In this document: piece after piece, positions 848 to 8,553 of the stretch
Position numbering within the stretch: position 1 is the stretch's first letter
Layout of the letters: each line of letters starts with the position of its first letter
NCBI GenBank assembly: GCA_965208325.1
Contig: OZ242326.1
Location: 3,520,001 to 3,584,000 of the forward strand
Direction of reading: 5' to 3'
Origin: Candidatus Poribacteria bacterium
Lineage (GTDB): Bacteria > Poribacteria > WGA-4E > PCPOR2b
DNA length: 64,000 nucleotides
Translations under genes and position numbers: made by a program
Notes under the pieces: model-generated
What the model was told of the DNA's origin: nothing
Database searches by the model: none
The model's input: the letters and a program-made list of their open reading frames with translations, nothing else

Positions 848-1231
848 TTAGTAGCTGTTAGACTCATCTGATTTGGGATCCGATCCAAGTCGCAAAACGA
901 GATTATCAAGGTCTTCCACTTTCATTTCGCACGACTAGACGTAGTTTGTTGGAACCTCTCGAATCGTAGCACCGCTCACCTAGTATTCTTCATATAACTT
1001 CTCGACATACTCGACACTTATCCAAGTCCAGGTTGCAGCTTGTCCATGATCGCCGTGGCATAGGATTATATGACAGTGGCCGCGTGATACAGACCCAAAG
1101 CCTGGCGGATCTCTCCAATCCCAATCCTTCTTAAAACCGAGCACTTTTACATAATAGTCGATACTGGCTGGAACATTCTTGAAATTGAAGACGGGTATGA
1201 TACACGCAAACTTGGTTTCTGTCCTTTTCAT
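848..1231 (-). pseudogene. VOC/glyoxalase (bleomycin-resistance-like) protein with two in-frame TAG stops
   Basis: N-terminal PVF..NVPASIDYYVKVLGF. Reading through TAG at 980-982 and TAG at 935-937 gives VSGATIREVPTNYV*SCEMKVEDLDNLVLRLGSDP, a normal VOC C-terminus ending at TAA 848-850. Confidence 0.75.
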
Positions 1232-1294
1232 TGCATCCGCACTCCGCCTTTCAAGAATTCCATTCAGTCAGAATTGTGTCCGCAAGTGTTGACC

Positions 1295-1324
1295 ATTATG
1301 GCACAATTGGCCGTATTGTGTCAA
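1295..1324 (-). promoter_or_regulatory. sigma70-type promoter for the VOC gene
   Basis: TTGACA-N18-CATAAT on the minus strand. Confidence 0.5.
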
Positions 1325-1428
1325 ACAGTATTCCCCACCCACTGGCATACGTAACAAACGCTTTAGTCTTCTTTCTCGCCTCGATTTCCCACTCAACAAA
1401 TTTCCCGCTGAATTTTTCGTAAAATCTG

Positions 1429-1457
1429 TGAACTTTTCATTTCCTTGCGGTGTCATT
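1429..1457 (+). promoter_or_regulatory. candidate ECF (sigmaE-like) promoter upstream of the sigma/mini-RNAP operon
   Basis: TGAACTT-N16-GTCATT resembles the sigmaE consensus GGAACTT-N16-GTCnnA. Confidence 0.5.
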
Positions 1458-1568
1458 TAGAATGGAAGCTTACCAGATGACCTATCGCCCCGCCTTTCGC
1501 CGGTAATTCTGAAAAGCAATATCAAAATGTCCTGAACCTAAGTCGGTACTTTCTTAAGCTGATGAGCA

Positions 1569-2174
1569 TTGATATTACAATCCGATGAACTTCTCATTGA
1601 TAAGATTCTTCAACGCGATGCGGAGGCGTTTGAAGTGCTTTGGGCACGATATAGCGCGTCCGTCCGCCAACACATCATACGCACCGTACAGGACGAAAGT
1701 GCGGCCGAGGATTTGGTTCAGGAAGCATTCTTGCGTCTATGGACATCCGCTGAACAGTGGGACGGACGCGGTAGTTTCAAGGGGTGGTTCTTCCGCATCG
1801 CTACAAATCTCGCTCTCAATTATCTGCGCGCGCTGCGGCGGCGGAAGCAACAGCCCCTCGAATTACCGCCGGATGATTTTGATGATGCGGACGAATCCGC
1901 GCCCGATCCGGATTGGATGATTGACACGTCAATACGTAGCCCCGACGCGATGTTAGTACAAGCCGAGCAGTCTAATTTGCTTTGGCGGCTTGTTGAAGAA
2001 CTCCCCGAAGATAAACGAGACGTGCTTCAGCTTGTATACCTGAAAGAGATGAATCTTCGCGACGTTGCCGCTGAGATTGGCGTCCCGGAAGGCACTGTAA
2101 AGTCGCGTTTACACTATTCGATTCGGCGCCTCGCTCAAGAATGGAAGGAGATTGCAGACGAAAACGAAGAATAG
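1569..2174 (+). CDS. ECF sigma-70 family factor
   Basis: Region 2 AEDLVQEAFLRLW...FKGWFFRIATNLALNYLR and region 4 LPEDKRDVLQL...VAAEIGVPEGTVKSRLH; TTG start. Confidence 0.95.
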   Translation: MILQSDELLIDKILQRDAEAFEVLWARYSASVRQHIIRTVQDESAAEDLVQEAFLRLWTSAEQWDGRGSFKGWFFRIATNLALNYLRALRRRKQQPLELPPDDFDDADESAPDPDWMIDTSIRSPDAMLVQAEQSNLLWRLVEELPEDKRDVLQLVYLKEMNLRDVAAEIGVPEGTVKSRLHYSIRRLAQEWKEIADENEE

Positions 2175-2221
2175 AGTAAGTGAGTAGGCGAGCGGAAGCG
2201 CAGCAAAGGCTATTTCTCGCC

Positions 2222-2263
2222 ACGCATTACGCATTACGCATTACGTATTACGCATTACGTATT
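2222..2263. repeat. tandem heptamer (ACGYATT)x6
   Basis: acgcatt acgcatt acgcatt acgtatt acgcatt acgtatt read directly. Confidence 0.9.
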
Positions 2264-2315
2264 CCACATCACGATTCACACTACACGAAATTCCCAATGG
2301 GAGGAGGAGACCGCA

Positions 2316-5300
2316 ATGTCACACAACGTCACCGCATTTTGGCACAAAGAATCTTTTGGCAAACTGATGGGCAATCGGTTGCCAGGGCTACTCGCCGAGC
2401 GATTACCGTTAGCTGGCTTCCATTTTGAATCTGTCAGTGCTTACACCGGTTGTATCAAAATCTCCCTCACGTCAACTGATGGCGACGTTGAAGTTGAATA
2501 CGCCGACATACCGCAGCCGGACGATGAAGGGATGTTCAAAATCGACGGAGAAAATTATGTAGTTGTTCCAACGGCTTCGACCCATAAACTTAAAAAGGCA
2601 AAAATAAGATGTGTTGGGGACCAACTATACAGTTATTTCAAAATGCGCTTGAAGGGTGCTTCCCTAGACCTGTCGTGGGAAGCAGCTTCTGTACGGTCAT
2701 GGCTCCCACTTGATGAATGGTCACAGCAATTTTTTCGCGACACATTTCACGCACAGAAACTACAGGAGACCAACTGGCTCGACAAGTATAGGCATCTTCG
2801 ACGGTTATACGTTCTGAACCGCGAGAAGGTGTTCACCCCCTCCCACTTCGGGCGGGCATGCCCTTTCGAGACGCCAGAGGGACCAAACATAGGTCGAATC
2901 CTTACGATTGCTAGGGGCGCCGAGATTCGCGGCGGAAAACTGGTCGTTGTTGATGAAAACCCAGAGGCAAACCTCGGCATAGCATCGGCAATGATCCCAT
3001 TTCTTGAACACAACGATCCTGCCCGGACAATGATGGGGGCTAACATGTTGTGTCAGTGGATGGCGCCTTCGTCTCCGGAGACAGCTCCACTACGCCAAGC
3101 CAAAGAGATTCCGAGGTTGGCTGCTGCTCCGGAGCCCGCACTTGTCCAAACGGGTTACGAACCGGATGTGCCTGACTTTTGGTGCGGTCGCAACCTATTG
3201 ACCGCTTTCATTTCATGGGGCGGCGATACCTTTGAAGACGGCATCGTGATAAGCCAGTCGTGCGCAGCGCGTCTGGATTTTCCTTACGCCGTTGAACCCG
3301 GCGATAAGATTGGCAACCGCCATGGAACGAAAGGGGTCGTTTCGCGCATCCTGCCTGACGATGAGATGCCGCACCTTGACGACGGTACACCGGTGGAACT
3401 TGTATTCAGTTTCGGTGGCTTACACGCGCTAATGAACGTCGGTCAATTACGAGAGGCGGTGATGGGGCGTATTGCACGATTGGAAAATAAGCCAGCAATC
3501 GTGACGCCATTCCACGCACCGAGTGCAGGCGAATTACGCGAACGCATCAAAAACGCAGGACTTCCCGAAGACGGCATGGAGATCCTCACACTTGGGCGAG
3601 ACGGTAAGAAGTTGGCAAGACCTAGCACAGTGGGTTGGGTTTACTGGGGACGTCTGGCTCACATTGCGTTAGATAAAATAAAAGCATCCGACTCAACCAA
3701 TATTGAAGACCATAGGTACTTCCAAACGCTCGGTGAACTTGAATACGATAGACTACGCAGCGCCTCAGTATTTGAAACATTGAGGGAACATTTTAACACA
3801 CGCGCCATGAATCGGACTGATGCGTATACGTTAGCGGAGCGCCTCGCAATAGGCGAAATTGAGCAGGCGGACCCACCGACGCCGATGTTCGCTAACCTCA
3901 CGAACCGGCTCTCGGCAGCAGGAATTCGGGTTGTATTCAGCGGCGGCAAGTTGACTTTTGGATTTGCGCCGCCGAATGGGAATACGCTCAAGCTTGCTCA
4001 GCCCGTCCCTCATCCGTGGTGCCGCGATCAATTCCTTGATGAGGTCGGTATCCGTGAAGACATCCCTGAATATCACGGACTTGCCGATGTTAACGCCAGG
4101 ACTGAACGGATGCTTGCGAGTCGTACACCGGCAAGTCTAACCCGCCAATCCCTCAAGCAGCTCCAAACGCGCGTGGCAGAATATGTCAATGCGCTCCTAA
4201 GTCCAACTGTCATGAACTTTAAGTCACGGAGCCTCTTCAGCGGACGCGCCGTCATTGCGCCGTCCGCAGAGTTGCGCGCTGATCAGGTCGGTATTCCGGT
4301 AGAGATGGCGTGGTCACTCTTTGGACATCATGTTACAAAGAGACTTGGTGGAGCAGAGGAAGTACGGCGGCGTAGTCAAGATGCAACACATGTCCTGGAT
4401 GAATTGATGGCGGGTTCGTGGGTAATTATGCTTCGTCCACCGGCACATACACTCACTAACCTTGTTGCGTTTCATCCGGTGCGGCACCCCGACCGCGTCA
4501 TCCGCGTGCACCCATTCGTGTGCGAGTTGATGAACGCCAATTTTGACGGCGATCAAGCAGCAGTCTTTCTCCCAATCACTGAAAGCGGACAACGCGAAGC
4601 CGGTGAACGGCTTTCCATCGCCGGGCATCTGAAATACGACCCAAGTTTATCCAAATTGCTGGCACCGACGCATGACGCGATGTGGGGATTGGCGCATTTA
4701 AGCCTCACCCCGGAAGGGCGCGGCGAAATCGCGGAGATTATCGGCACCGACATCCCCGCCCCACACGGTCTGGTTAGACAAGATTCGCTGGCAAAGTCAC
4801 TAGAAGCCATCCTCAAATGCGATGGAATAGACCGCACGATTGAAATAGCCGAACGTCTAATGCGGCGCGGGCTCGCAATTGCTAAGGAATCGGGTGCTTC
4901 CATGAGCGCATTCATCAGCAGCCCCGCCGGCAGTCCATCCGTCCCGGTAGATCCCGACGATGCACCCGCTTGGAACGCTTATGCTGAAGAGCTGGTCGAA
5001 TGGCTTGCCGCGTGTAACGACTTCGCAGACAACAACTTGGGACCGCACATCCTTGCGGCAAAAAGCCAACACGCACATAGTAGATTTCATCGAATCGCTT
5101 GTTGTGTCGGGGGGAGAGGTACGGTTTTGGACCTTCAAGGAAGAAATATCATCGTTCGCAACGGGTATAGCGACGGTTTAACACCCGAGGAACTTTACCC
5201 GCTTTCCGTCACTTCGCGGGAGGAGATTGTGCGGCTCAATTTGGAACGGCAACGGATAGAATTGGAATTGCGCAACGACAGTGAGCCGGCAGGATTCACC

Positions 5301-5435
5301 GTCCTAGTGCGTGCAATGCGTGCCAAACACCCAGGTTTCGTTTTCGCCCGAGCCGCTGCTACCGGCGAGACCGATCCGCTTACTGATGTGGACAGCCGTC
5401 TTTTCGTCGGGCTACCTGTATCAACGGAGGAGTGA
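2316..5435 (+). CDS. single-chain minimal RNA polymerase beta/beta' fusion-like protein (two-barrel fold) with variant catalytic motif NANFDGD
   Basis: beta motifs HFGRACPFETPEGPNIG, IPFLEHNDPARTMMGANM, FEDGIVIS, GDKIGNRHGTKGVVSRILP..EMPHLDDGTPVEL. Then beta' motifs LAQPVPHPW, FSGRAVI, GIPVEMAWSLF, HPFVCELMNANFDGDQAAVFLP and C-terminal AAATGETDPL....LFVG. GGAGGAGG SD before ATG 2316. Confidence 0.93.
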   Translation: MSHNVTAFWHKESFGKLMGNRLPGLLAERLPLAGFHFESVSAYTGCIKISLTSTDGDVEVEYADIPQPDDEGMFKIDGENYVVVPTASTHKLKKAKIRCVGDQLYSYFKMRLKGASLDLSWEAASVRSWLPLDEWSQQFFRDTFHAQKLQETNWLDKYRHLRRLYVLNREKVFTPSHFGRACPFETPEGPNIGRILTIARGAEIRGGKLVVVDENPEANLGIASAMIPFLEHNDPARTMMGANMLCQWMAPSSPETAPLRQAKEIPRLAAAPEPALVQTGYEPDVPDFWCGRNLLTAFISWGGDTFEDGIVISQSCAARLDFPYAVEPGDKIGNRHGTKGVVSRILPDDEMPHLDDGTPVELVFSFGGLHALMNVGQLREAVMGRIARLENKPAIVTPFHAPSAGELRERIKNAGLPEDGMEILTLGRDGKKLARPSTVGWVYWGRLAHIALDKIKASDSTNIEDHRYFQTLGELEYDRLRSASVFETLREHFNTRAMNRTDAYTLAERLAIGEIEQADPPTPMFANLTNRLSAAGIRVVFSGGKLTFGFAPPNGNTLKLAQPVPHPWCRDQFLDEVGIREDIPEYHGLADVNARTERMLASRTPASLTRQSLKQLQTRVAEYVNALLSPTVMNFKSRSLFSGRAVIAPSAELRADQVGIPVEMAWSLFGHHVTKRLGGAEEVRRRSQDATHVLDELMAGSWVIMLRPPAHTLTNLVAFHPVRHPDRVIRVHPFVCELMNANFDGDQAAVFLPITESGQREAGERLSIAGHLKYDPSLSKLLAPTHDAMWGLAHLSLTPEGRGEIAEIIGTDIPAPHGLVRQDSLAKSLEAILKCDGIDRTIEIAERLMRRGLAIAKESGASMSAFISSPAGSPSVPVDPDDAPAWNAYAEELVEWLAACNDFADNNLGPHILAAKSQHAHSRFHRIACCVGGRGTVLDLQGRNIIVRNGYSDGLTPEELYPLSVTSREEIVRLNLERQRIELELRNDSEPAGFTVLVRAMRAKHPGFVFARAAATGETDPLTDVDSRLFVGLPVSTEE

Positions 5436-5472
5436 TACATTGTCGTGAACACAAGCAATATCCGTGATTCAG

Positions 5473-6279
5473 TCATTCATCAAACACTTCACTGCCGATT
5501 GAGCCGCCGGCATTCATCGCCAAATTGCCGCCGTCCATCGGAATTATCGCACCGGTAATCCATGAAGACTCGTCCGATGCGAGAAATACCGCCAGGCCGC
5601 GAATGTCGTCAGGGCGGCCGAATCGTCCCATTGGAATGCCGCTGAGGAACCGATCCTTAATTCGCGGATCAGCGTCGATGCGTTTCTGCAAATCTGGGTT
5701 TAATACTTGTGCGGGTAAAATCGCATTGACCCGCACACCGCGTCCCGACCATTCGGTGCTCAGTTCCCGTGTCATCTGGACAACCGCACCCATCGCCATG
5801 CTGTATGCGATGTGCCCGCGGCCCATACCCGTGATGCTCGCCAGAGAACCGAGACTTACGATGCTCCCACTTCCAGCGGCAAGCATCCGCCGACCGGCTT
5901 CCTGACAACAACAGAATCTGCCATAGACAAGGTTGCGCCAAGTCTGTTCAACGTCTTCTAACGAGATAACCTCCGGTTTTGCTCGGATCGCTTCGCCCGC
6001 GACATTACCTAGAAAATCGATCCGACCAAATTCCTCGTCCACTCGTGCAAACATGGCGCGAATTTGATCCGGATGCGATACGTCACAATCAACAGCGATG
6101 GCGCGGCGTCCCATCTCCCTGATTTCGCCAGCAGTCTTCACCGCACCAGCCAAGTCAATATCCGCAAGCATCAAGCCCGCACCCGCCTCTGCCAAAGCTA
6201 ACGACATCGCACGACCCATGCCGCTTGCCGCTCCCGATACAACTGCAACTCGTCCGGCAAGATTGAACATCTCCGTCAT
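5473..6279 (-). CDS. SDR family NAD(P)-dependent oxidoreductase
   Basis: SGAASGMG Rossmann motif, GVRVNAILP, ITGAIIPMDGG; YxxxK appears as YSMAM. Confidence 0.9.
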   Translation of the reverse strand: MTEMFNLAGRVAVVSGAASGMGRAMSLALAEAGAGLMLADIDLAGAVKTAGEIREMGRRAIAVDCDVSHPDQIRAMFARVDEEFGRIDFLGNVAGEAIRAKPEVISLEDVEQTWRNLVYGRFCCCQEAGRRMLAAGSGSIVSLGSLASITGMGRGHIAYSMAMGAVVQMTRELSTEWSGRGVRVNAILPAQVLNPDLQKRIDADPRIKDRFLSGIPMGRFGRPDDIRGLAVFLASDESSWITGAIIPMDGGNLAMNAGGSIGSEVFDE

Positions 6280-7392: not shown

Positions 7393-8553
7393 TCAGATTA
7401 TGGCGCTGTGGGCACGTAGATACTGCGCCACCTCAACACGGTCTTCGTGTTCTGCCCATGCAAGCGGGGATAGGTGATGAGCACCGTCTTTATTATTTAG
7501 GTTTGCACCTCGCTCTGCGAGAAGCATGACTATCGCGAGATGGCCCTTGAACGCCGCAAAGTGGACCGGCATCCACACTGCACCTAAGCCGGGCGGCATC
7601 GCATCTACTCGCGCGCCTCGTTCAAGCAGCAACGCGGCAACCTCCGCACGACCGTTCAAACTGGCAATACACAATGCTTCTTCGAGAATCTCTTGCGGTT
7701 CGTCCGACCGAGACTCCTCTTCAAACCAGCCGATGTCGCCGAGGTTCGGCCGATCAGATGCCGCCTCCGGCTTCAGGGTTCCATCTTCAGCAAAGTAAGA
7801 CTTTACCGAGTCAATGCCGCCGGCGCCCGCCGCCATCCAAAAGCTACACGGCGATATACCACGTTCAATCCAAAAATCGACAGCATCCCGATTCCCGTGC
7901 AACATGGCCGATTTTATCTGCCAAACGGCGGGCGATTCGTCCGAGCGTAACGCGCCGGTTTCGATGAGGAGTTGGACAGCTTTTAGATTGTTTGCCCAAA
8001 ACACTTTTTCCATTCGAGCCCCTGCTCCGATAAGGGCGCGCATTATGGGAAGTCGAGTGTCGGTGGAGATGCCTTCGATCGAGGCGGCGTATTCAAGAAG
8101 TGTGATATAGTCCTCAGATATCTCGGGCGCCTTTATCATCGCGTTGACAATGGAGGGGGCATGTTTTAACAGTTCTCTCAGTGTGTTTGAATCGCCTTTC
8201 CGGATGGTTTCAAACGCTGCACTCAAGGTTTCGTCAGTGCGCTCCGAAGGGTCGGCTCCGAGCATGATTGCACGCTCGATGAGTGCCTCCCAACTCGTAA
8301 ATCCTCTTTCACGCGCAATCACGAGTTGCGCCTCTTTTAATGACAGGTCCGAGGCGCGGACTTGTTCATATTTTGCACCCGCAAATCGCGGCAGGTATTC
8401 CCGAAGGCGGTGAGCAGCCCAACGCAAACCGGATTGATGCGCCTTCAATAGAATTCGCGCTAGTCTCTGGTAGTAGGCGCCGCCTTTCCCCCATCCCCAC
8501 AACATATGGTCGCGCGGATCTCGCGTGGCGTGCTCGATCGAGTTCGCAGTCAT
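7393..8553 (-). CDS. ankyrin-repeat protein
   Basis: N-terminal EAQLVIARERGFTSW motif; ankyrin repeats ALCIASLNGRAEVAALLLERGA and PVHFAAFKGHLAIVMLLAERGA. Confidence 0.85.
   Translation of the reverse strand: MTANSIEHATRDPRDHMLWGWGKGGAYYQRLARILLKAHQSGLRWAAHRLREYLPRFAGAKYEQVRASDLSLKEAQLVIARERGFTSWEALIERAIMLGADPSERTDETLSAAFETIRKGDSNTLRELLKHAPSIVNAMIKAPEISEDYITLLEYAASIEGISTDTRLPIMRALIGAGARMEKVFWANNLKAVQLLIETGALRSDESPAVWQIKSAMLHGNRDAVDFWIERGISPCSFWMAAGAGGIDSVKSYFAEDGTLKPEAASDRPNLGDIGWFEEESRSDEPQEILEEALCIASLNGRAEVAALLLERGARVDAMPPGLGAVWMPVHFAAFKGHLAIVMLLAERGANLNNKDGAHHLSPLAWAEHEDRVEVAQYLRAHSAII

Follow-up and report, generated by a model that had tools for sequence, protein, structure and literature searches.

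A single-chain mini RNA polymerase of Poribacteria retains the beta' clamp helices, a candidate docking site for the ECF sigma factor encoded beside it

We analysed a stretch of 64,000 nucleotides from Candidatus Poribacteria bacterium (GenBank assembly GCA_965208325.1, contig OZ242326.1, positions 3,520,001 to 3,584,000 of the forward strand), referred to here as the window. It carries two neighbouring genes on the + strand. The first, at 1569..2174, encodes a 201-residue extracytoplasmic function (ECF, group 4) sigma factor with a TTG start, recognised with Pfam and NCBIfam; the second, at 2316..5435, encodes a protein of 1039 amino acids in which beta-like and beta'-like RNA polymerase parts are joined in a single chain (Pfam Rpb2_3, Rpb2_6 and Rpb1_2). 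The feature of interest is a segment of the second protein, residues 585-628 (4068..4199, +), which profile alignments match to the beta' clamp helices, the coiled coil at residues 268-311 of E. coli beta'. On balance, we favour the view that this hairpin is kept as a docking site for the co-encoded sigma factor. The bearer of the mini-polymerase is a sponge-associated bacterium. Its genome, a single 4.7-Mb contig, has a canonical rpoB (C1:3948175-3951993), an rpoC in an adjoining frame of 1433 amino acids and a nusG elsewhere; since normal rpoB and rpoC genes are present, the 1039-residue protein is an extra, miniature polymerase.

Both the beta-type and the beta'-type double-psi barrels are present in this protein (Pfam Rpb2_6 and Rpb1_2; hhalign). 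Pfam places Rpb2 domain 3 at residues 148-204, Rpb2 domain 6 at 326-458 (E 7.3e-39) and Rpb1 domain 2 at 690-763 (E 4.7e-16). Against the NCBIfam rpoB and rpoC models it scores 161.7 and 73.3 bits, far below the equivalog cut-offs of 801.15 and 963.5, and judged by these scores it is not a canonical rpoB or rpoC product. The beta-like half occupies residues 1 to ∼545 (2316..3950, +; profile alignment to E. coli beta). For the comparisons that follow we used an alignment, A1, of 72 full-length family members, chosen by length (∼940–1,110 amino acids) and with fragments excluded. When A1 was compared with E. coli beta by hmmsearch, profile positions 56-86 corresponded to 118-148, 107-202 to 474-580, 265-296 to 790-821 and 301-395 to 1054-1148, and the match continued up to profile position 519, which is equivalent to residue 1341 at the C-terminal end of E. 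coli beta. This alignment leaves the beta half without a lobe (E. coli 149-473) or a flap (E. coli 822-1053). A flap profile built from 47 sequences likewise matched nothing in A1 (P 0.46), and hence the mini-polymerase lacks a flap tip helix.

The beta' part is reduced even before the hairpin is reached. Between the end of the beta half (∼545) and residue 585 there are ∼39 residues (546-584), as against 267 in E. coli beta', and profile searches with this junction stretch gave no significant match to beta' 1-265. That residues 520-584 represent beta' 76-126 is no more than a lead: hmmsearch (score −3.3, with no genome match) and hhalign (probability 8, P 0.0043) both point there, and neither is significant. 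Residues 530-579 (3903-4052) include an invariant H566-P567-W568, and the pattern LxLAxPVPHPW resembles, not significantly, E. coli beta' 105-115 (IELASPTAHIW); this piece is possibly a cysteine-less remnant of the region that follows the beta' zinc finger. Beyond the hairpin, a linker of 13 residues (629-641; 4200..4238, +) replaces the ∼25-residue rudder segment and appears as a single 25-residue gap against E. coli beta'. The beta' double-psi barrel then begins with SGR at 642-644 and was traced by hhalign and a motif table through the catalytic loop (4239..4715, +), the loop itself, NANFDGD, being residues 740-746 (4533..4553, +). No trigger loop is detectable in the A1 alignment, where profile positions 955-970 (approximately residues 980-1000) replace E. 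coli beta' 795-1318, and the C-terminal conserved block resembles beta' 1319-1354 weakly. As read from these alignments, the parts lost are the beta lobe and flap and the beta' zinc finger, zipper, most of the clamp core, rudder and trigger loop. The hairpin is the sole recognisable piece of the first ∼340 residues of beta', so that the statement of an earlier sequence-only reading of this DNA, that most of the clamp is deleted, is a fair description.

That reading had assigned the 44 residues to the beta' clamp coiled coil by eye. The residues it quoted are the exact translation of 4068-4199 (+) and form residues 585-628 of the open reading frame 2316-5435, where query residue r is equivalent to E. 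coli beta' residue r−317. With a single sequence the assignment is hard to make: phmmer alignments to beta' chains of the PDB begin only at residue 638 and do not reach the segment, and Pfam Rpb1_1 has no match on the 1039-residue protein at E values up to 1. With the A1 profile, the alignment to solved beta' chains starts at profile position 560, which is residue 585 (6j9e_D 267-521, 5uh5_D 342-594). Profile positions 560-773 match E. coli K-12 beta' 267-516, ungapped over 267-311 and followed by the 25-residue gap and the SGR block, and canonical beta' frames from metagenome loci likewise begin to align at profile position 559-560 in 25/26 cases, the 26th frame being truncated. Thus, the segment does lie just before the SGR block as the earlier reading had placed it, collinear and with one gap at the rudder. 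When the slice of the family alignment from 500 to 830 was compared by hhalign with an alignment of 27 canonical beta' sequences, the match (probability 100, E 4.8e-40) ran from query residue 583 to 809 on E. coli 266-527 and was ungapped over the hairpin.

The segment can also be recognised on its own. The 44 columns alone, set against the N-terminal alignment of the 27 canonical sequences, gave an hhalign probability of 94.4 (P 8.9e-8, score 44.3), with columns 2-42 falling ungapped on E. coli 269-309; none of 40 column shuffles scored above 17.8 (median 12.0), and reversing the segment gave 17.9. A profile alignment of this kind was the test that the sequence-only reading had set for itself, and the segment maps to the clamp helices. 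We also searched a 44-column hidden Markov model (HMM), with filters off, against the 28,642 stop-to-stop frames of at least 60 amino acids in the bacterium's own genome. After the protein itself (E 4.5e-15), the second match was the canonical beta' (E 0.0025, frame residues 303-341) and the third a frame of 63 amino acids (E 0.012); with a 73-column model the canonical beta' was found at 6.1e-5 and the next match at 0.14. Viral beta'-like frames were tried as a control and rejected as too heterogeneous, the family profile starting at 562-589 in 29/50 of them, at 608-616 in 20/50 and at 693 in 1/50; all three fused viral frames (3/3) are among the 20 that start at 608-616.

Many residues of the canonical hairpin recur in the mini-polymerase family. 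Counted over the 72 members, E. coli N276 is N in 55, R278 is R in 50, L279 is L in 51 (T596 in the 1039-residue protein), R281 is R in 47, L282 is L or M in 46, A287 is A in 42, P288 at the tip is P in 68 (P605), I291 is L in 64, L299 is L in 63 and V303 is V, L or I in 70. The motif N-x-R-L-x-R-x-L-x3-A-P is common to the family and to beta', and the canonical helices (E. coli ∼265–309) have the same length and the same site, directly N-terminal of the SGR barrel start, sharing N276, R278, L279, R281, L282/L283, A287-P288, I291, L299 and V303 with the mini hairpin. No indel falls within 588-628 in any of the 72 members; this, the tip proline in 68/72 and hydrophobic residues spaced by three or four are indirect signs of a hairpin, and the segment is probably helical, with helix 1 at ∼585–603, the tip at P605 and helix 2 at ∼606–628 by equivalence to the E. 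coli clamp helices. The by-eye alignment of the earlier reading holds over helix 1 and the tip and is displaced by four residues at the C-terminal end, where NALL was set against DALL. Taken as a question of profile homology, residues 585-628 are a true homolog of the bacterial beta' clamp helices. There are also differences. The canonical helices sit amid the zinc finger, zipper, lid, clamp core and rudder, whereas the mini hairpin stands almost alone; R275, L285, E295 and M298, invariant or nearly so in the 27 canonical sequences, are small or variable residues in the mini family; and the mean top-residue fraction over the hairpin is 0.44 in the family against 0.88 in canonical beta'.

In one genus (L195-L201 and related genomes), ∼31 residues are inserted between 582 and 585, where BLAST alignments break; this lineage-specific insertion falls exactly on the N-terminal boundary of the clamp helices. 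At another locus (L212, G049:C2:819500-826500) the polymerase gene is in two overlapping frames of 610 and 495 amino acids. The reading frame shifts near residue 555, immediately N-terminal to the HPW motif and the clamp helices, and the shift is either a sequencing error or a real break. An apparently split polymerase gene in genome G219 proved to be merely a contig break.

The sigma factor upstream has sigma2 and sigma4 domains only (Pfam Sigma70_r2, 4.6e-18; Sigma70_r4, 1.5e-12). It scores 119.7 bits against the NCBIfam sigma70-ECF model (TIGR02937; cut-off 42.9), and among solved chains it comes nearest to E. coli sigmaE (1or7, E 3.5e-21). The association with the polymerase was examined in loci pooled from three sets, namely 21 loci, 29 from the genomes of the phylum (4 of them duplicates) and 8 from a Capsulimonas-type second phylum (1 duplicate). 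A sigma gene of this family is found directly upstream and on the same strand in 48 of the 53 distinct loci, from at least two phyla (17/21, 24/25 further and 7/7 by set). Three of the loci that lack it have no upstream DNA (L011) or are broken or partial (L025, L194). At 17 of these 48 loci the polymerase start overlaps or adjoins the sigma stop (−20 to +10 nucleotides), and the 141-nucleotide gap between the two genes in the window contains no terminator-like site. Among 14 lineage representatives the sigma is the only conserved neighbour, and the conserved module in these representatives includes no anti-sigma gene or other regulator. At one locus, two longer open reading frames with this sigma domain (L023:219-1895, 559 amino acids; L023:5744-6790, 349 amino acids) flank the sigma-polymerase pair.

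The two genes also travel together between genomes. Across 176 genomes of the phylum, with the polymerase called at E 1e-50 or better, the polymerase was found in 33, the sigma ortholog in 32 and both in 31; the genomes are related and not independent, and we give these as counts without a statistic. The sigma orthologs form a sharply separate score class (at least 267 bits, with paralogs at no more than 151.5 bits). The exceptions are a genome with a 152-residue polymerase remnant and no sigma ortholog (G031), one with a sigma pseudogene carrying two in-frame stops and no polymerase (G056), and a partial gene in a genome that is 79% complete (G010). Both genes are jointly absent in several separate genera and species, and the exceptions look like joint decay of the pair. 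Both are under purifying selection in this genus, with ratios of non-synonymous to synonymous substitution (dN/dS) of 0.18–0.27 for the polymerase and 0.15–0.21 for the sigma.

A promoter of the RpoE type lies 5' of the sigma gene at 1429..1454 (+), reading TGAAC(TT), 16 nucleotides and GTGTC, or GAAC-N18-GTC. Read directly from the window and its relatives, the motif is TGAAC(T/C) with GTC 18 nucleotides past GAAC, usually within CGGTGTC. The promoter blocks are invariant in 5/5 aligned loci, and the same motif with identical spacing is present in 37/37 assessable distinct loci, a count that leaves out two with too little upstream DNA (L015, L016) and two in which the sigma start is off the contig (L020, L024). 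With 6/7 loci of the second phylum, the motif is found at 43/44 assessable loci overall. In the Introduction of PMC6648896, the E. coli sigmaE consensus is GGAACTT and GTC. Because the motif matches this consensus, the sigma-polymerase operon is almost certainly autoregulated by its own sigma, as far as promoter sequence can tell. No wider regulon was apparent in short-motif scans: apart from the promoter of the operon itself nothing was enriched, and TGAAC-N16-GTGTC has 7 matches in the genome where ∼9 are expected by composition.

If the hairpin docks the sigma, the surfaces that would meet should be recognisable. The sigma2 domains of ECF and other sigma factors attach to the clamp helices, according to PMC6648896 and PMC10216364, and for sigma32 the latter lists R275, R278, R281, L282, L285, I291, E295 and M298 as contacts on the beta' side and D77, E81, I84 and M87 on the sigma side. 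In the mini family, four of these eight beta' positions are conserved in kind (R278, R281, L282 and I291). The contact-equivalent positions have a mean conservation of 0.585 over the 72 members, compared with 0.412 over the remaining 36 positions of the hairpin (one-sided Mann-Whitney p 0.009, permutation p 0.021). On the sigma side, the putative clamp-helix-binding face is the region 2.2 helix at residues 46-58, AEDLVQEAFLRLW (1704..1742, +), in which A46, D48, Q51, E52, R56 and W58 do not vary among 14 paired sigmas and hardly vary among 40 pairs. From the shared motif, we infer that residues of this helix are equivalent to D77, E81, I84 and M87 of sigma32. The better conservation of the contact set and the invariance of the region 2.2 residues suggest that both surfaces are maintained, with a conserved polar core, formed by the hairpin arginines and the aspartate and glutamate of the sigma, and a remodelled rim. 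Across the 40 pairs, covariation of the hairpin with sigma region 2.2 gave no usable signal, the lineages being few and region 2.2 nearly invariant.

These observations can be brought together as follows. The hairpin is retained in a single-chain beta::beta' polymerase of ∼1,000 residues that has lost most of the surrounding parts, and its role is most likely still the canonical one of docking domain 2 of a sigma factor through helix 2.2. The docked sigma would be the product of the gene immediately upstream, a dedicated ECF factor translated together with the polymerase, with D48, E52, L55 and W58 of the sigma contacted by R595, R598, M599 and L608 of the hairpin; together the two proteins would form a minimal holoenzyme that transcribes. 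The half of the interface that has changed (R275 to A/V, L285 to S/G, E295 to A/S) may make the sigma and the mini-polymerase specific for each other. A physical partnership with the adjacent ECF sigma, as the sequence-only reading had proposed, is plausible in view of the two-gene operon in 48/53 loci, the co-occurrence and co-loss of the genes, the conservation of the sigma-facing positions and the retention of R278/R281 and D48/E52. More tentatively, and with rather less confidence than an even chance would give, the pair may be a two-protein machine present in several phyla: a core of ∼115 kDa with the clamp hairpin as its only handle for an initiation factor, together with a private ECF sigma docked there, the remodelled interface (R275 to A, E295 to A) insulating the pair from other sigmas and from the other core, and sigma4 working without a flap tip helix. 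It would then be the smallest sigma-dependent RNA polymerase known.

Several observations weigh against such docking. In one alternative explanation the link between the genes is regulatory only: the sigma and the host core would switch on the operon, the mini-polymerase would act alone, and the hairpin would be kept for a NusG-like factor or for holding DNA or hybrid. We consider this unlikely. Co-occurrence and operon structure are equally expected if the sigma merely regulates the gene, and two loci (L012 and L017) have no sigma in 2.4 kb and 0.87 kb of upstream DNA with the hairpin intact. The RpoE-like −35 and −10 elements, at fixed standard spacing in 43/44 assessable loci, and the lack in the mini-polymerase of the flap that positions sigma4 fit promoter reading by the sigma on the host core, and a canonical core and nusG exist in the genome. 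The sigma retains the generic core-binding motif, and of the 7 positions with which sigma4 of sigmaE binds the flap tip, 4–5 remain hydrophobic in it; it may still use a canonical core. As a test of core choice these sigma4 positions were dropped, since 4–5 of 7 is undecisive. On the hairpin, the other four contact positions are changed (R275 is A in 50/72; L285 is S in 28/72 or G in 10/72; E295 is A in 45/72; M298 is variable); six of the same eight are invariant in the 27 canonical beta' sequences. The conservation of the hairpin as a whole, at 0.443, is below the protein average of 0.523 and at the 21st percentile of 44-residue windows, and its dN/dS in this genus (0.15–0.62) is not below that of the whole gene. 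The clamp helices also serve as the site for NusG, for which the abstract of PMC12364105 names R270, R278 and R281 as key residues; the mini family keeps R278 and R281, and R270 is not conserved, which counts the other way. As described in passages of PMC5467207, YonO, a single-chain relative, is not known to need a sigma. What a purely regulatory link leaves unexplained is why just the sigma-docking hairpin should survive of ∼340 N-terminal beta' residues, and why the sigma-facing positions should be its best conserved. It also sits uneasily with a module that has no anti-sigma or other regulator, with the overlapping stop and start in 17 loci, which suggests production in fixed proportion, and with the absence of any other visible target of the sigma in the genome (7 matches against ∼9 expected).

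A further possibility, which we think improbable, is that the mini-polymerase binds the sigma through its clamp helices only to sequester it, providing anti-sigma-like feedback at least in this genus. The positively autoregulatory promoter with no anti-sigma gene beside it, and the retention of the hairpin and its arginines, would be expected of such a sink. So would the sequence of the catalytic loop, which also tells against a transcribing complex: NANFDGD carries N742 where the first of three metal-binding aspartates would stand, as in the two closest relatives in A1. However, that position is D in 67/72 members, which keep NADFDGD and the other polymerase motifs, D744 is present in 70/72 and D746 in 69/72, and the family as a whole looks catalytic; purifying selection acts on the whole of the 1039-residue gene and not just on the hairpin, and a decoy of 1,000 residues would be costly. 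That the segment is an unrelated helical linker which merely resembles clamp helices is close to refuted. The query alone is weakly similar, with single-sequence phmmer stopping short of the segment and Rpb1_1 unmatched, but against this stand the segment-only profile-profile match with its far lower shuffled and reversed controls, the collinear, ungapped continuity with the adjacent barrel, the ability of the segment HMM to pick canonical beta' from a whole genome, and the motif shared with beta'. Docking of the co-encoded sigma remains the explanation that we favour, and its wider setting is considered next.

At E 1e-30 or better the family comprises 412 representatives at 50% identity, canonical subunits being included in this count. 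The form of ∼1,000 amino acids occurs in records of Poribacteria, Chloroflexota, Hydrogenedentes, Ktedonobacteraceae and Capsulimonas, and where database names are given they are mostly ‘hypothetical protein’. Further proteins with fused Rpb2_6 and Rpb1_2 domains, in size classes of ∼1,200–1,800 amino acids, are present in the ESM Atlas. On three viral contigs (L091, L120 and L155) there are fused frames of 1,457–1,982 amino acids, to which the family profile aligns only past the clamp helices. A mobile or defence origin was considered and is ruled against: IMG/VR gave no close relative among the best 80 loci (the top one at 30% identity over part of the protein), tblastn found no place covering 80% of the mini-polymerase in phage records (50,697 searched; 0/44 matching records) or in plasmid records (0/67), PADLOC gave no defence match, and the genes around the sigma-polymerase pair are ordinary chromosomal genes. 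A literature search, which did not cover Iyer and Aravind's work on polymerase evolution, found no description of the mini-polymerase family, and the text and one supplement of the ECF reclassification paper make no mention of Rpb1, Rpb2 or rpoB neighbours.

Several known proteins invite comparison. YonO of the B. subtilis prophage SPbeta, which we compared by its description in PMC5467207, is also a single chain of ∼1,000 residues (∼100 kDa) related to multisubunit polymerases and, like the mini-polymerase, is without trigger loop, lid, rudder and flap. It is described there as sharing just a few catalytic residues with the multisubunit enzymes, whereas the mini-polymerase matches Rpb2_6 and Rpb1_2 at E 7e-39 and 5e-16; unlike YonO, the mini-polymerase keeps the clamp helices, is chromosomal and not prophage-borne, and has a dedicated sigma. 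Orf6 of the yeast killer plasmid pGKl2, as presented in PMC2919709, is an Rpb2::Rpb1 fusion of 982 amino acids with the same order (second-largest subunit first); it is of comparable size and has lost about half of each subunit, but it is eukaryotic, of plasmid origin and involves no sigma factor. The paper nowhere uses the word ‘clamp’. In sequence, the mini-polymerase stands much nearer to bacterial beta and beta' than either of these does. Full-length beta::beta' fusions (NCBIfam PRK14844 and PRK09603; 2839 and 2890 positions) have the same subunit order in one chain, and their models match the mini-polymerase at E 5.7e-45 and 2.2e-40. Those proteins are complete canonical subunits joined together, whereas the mini-polymerase is cut down to about one third of their length and reaches 153 and 137 bits where the cut-offs are 4632 and 5372. 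The sigma factor, for its part, shares with RpoE-like ECF sigmas such as E. coli sigmaE (PMC6648896) the sigma2 and sigma4 domains, a DLVQEAF(L/I)xxW core-binding helix and a GAAC...GTC promoter. In contrast to these, it has no anti-sigma partner, the adjoining gene being a polymerase, and its orthologs are a separate score class found only where the mini-polymerase exists.

Two smaller features of the locus may be mentioned. Inside the gap that separates the sigma gene from the polymerase gene is a 7-nucleotide unit (consensus ACGCATT) in six tandem copies at 2222-2263; 3' of these repeats, before the polymerase ATG, GGAGGAGGAG is a strong ribosome-binding stretch, and the length of the gap varies from 98 to 141 nucleotides between close relatives. 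Rfam has no match within positions 900-5600 of the window. A few genes downstream of the polymerase is a gene for an ankyrin-repeat protein of 386 amino acids (7393..8553, −; Pfam Ank_2, 3.5e-13).

If the hairpin does dock the sigma, the pair would be a compact and possibly orthogonal, promoter-specific polymerase for synthetic biology, and the placement of sigma4 without a flap tip would become testable. More generally, it would be a natural minimal holoenzyme of one catalytic chain and one sigma, dispensing with alpha and omega as well as with the flap, lobe, rudder and trigger loop, and would show which parts of the bacterial enzyme sigma-directed initiation really needs.

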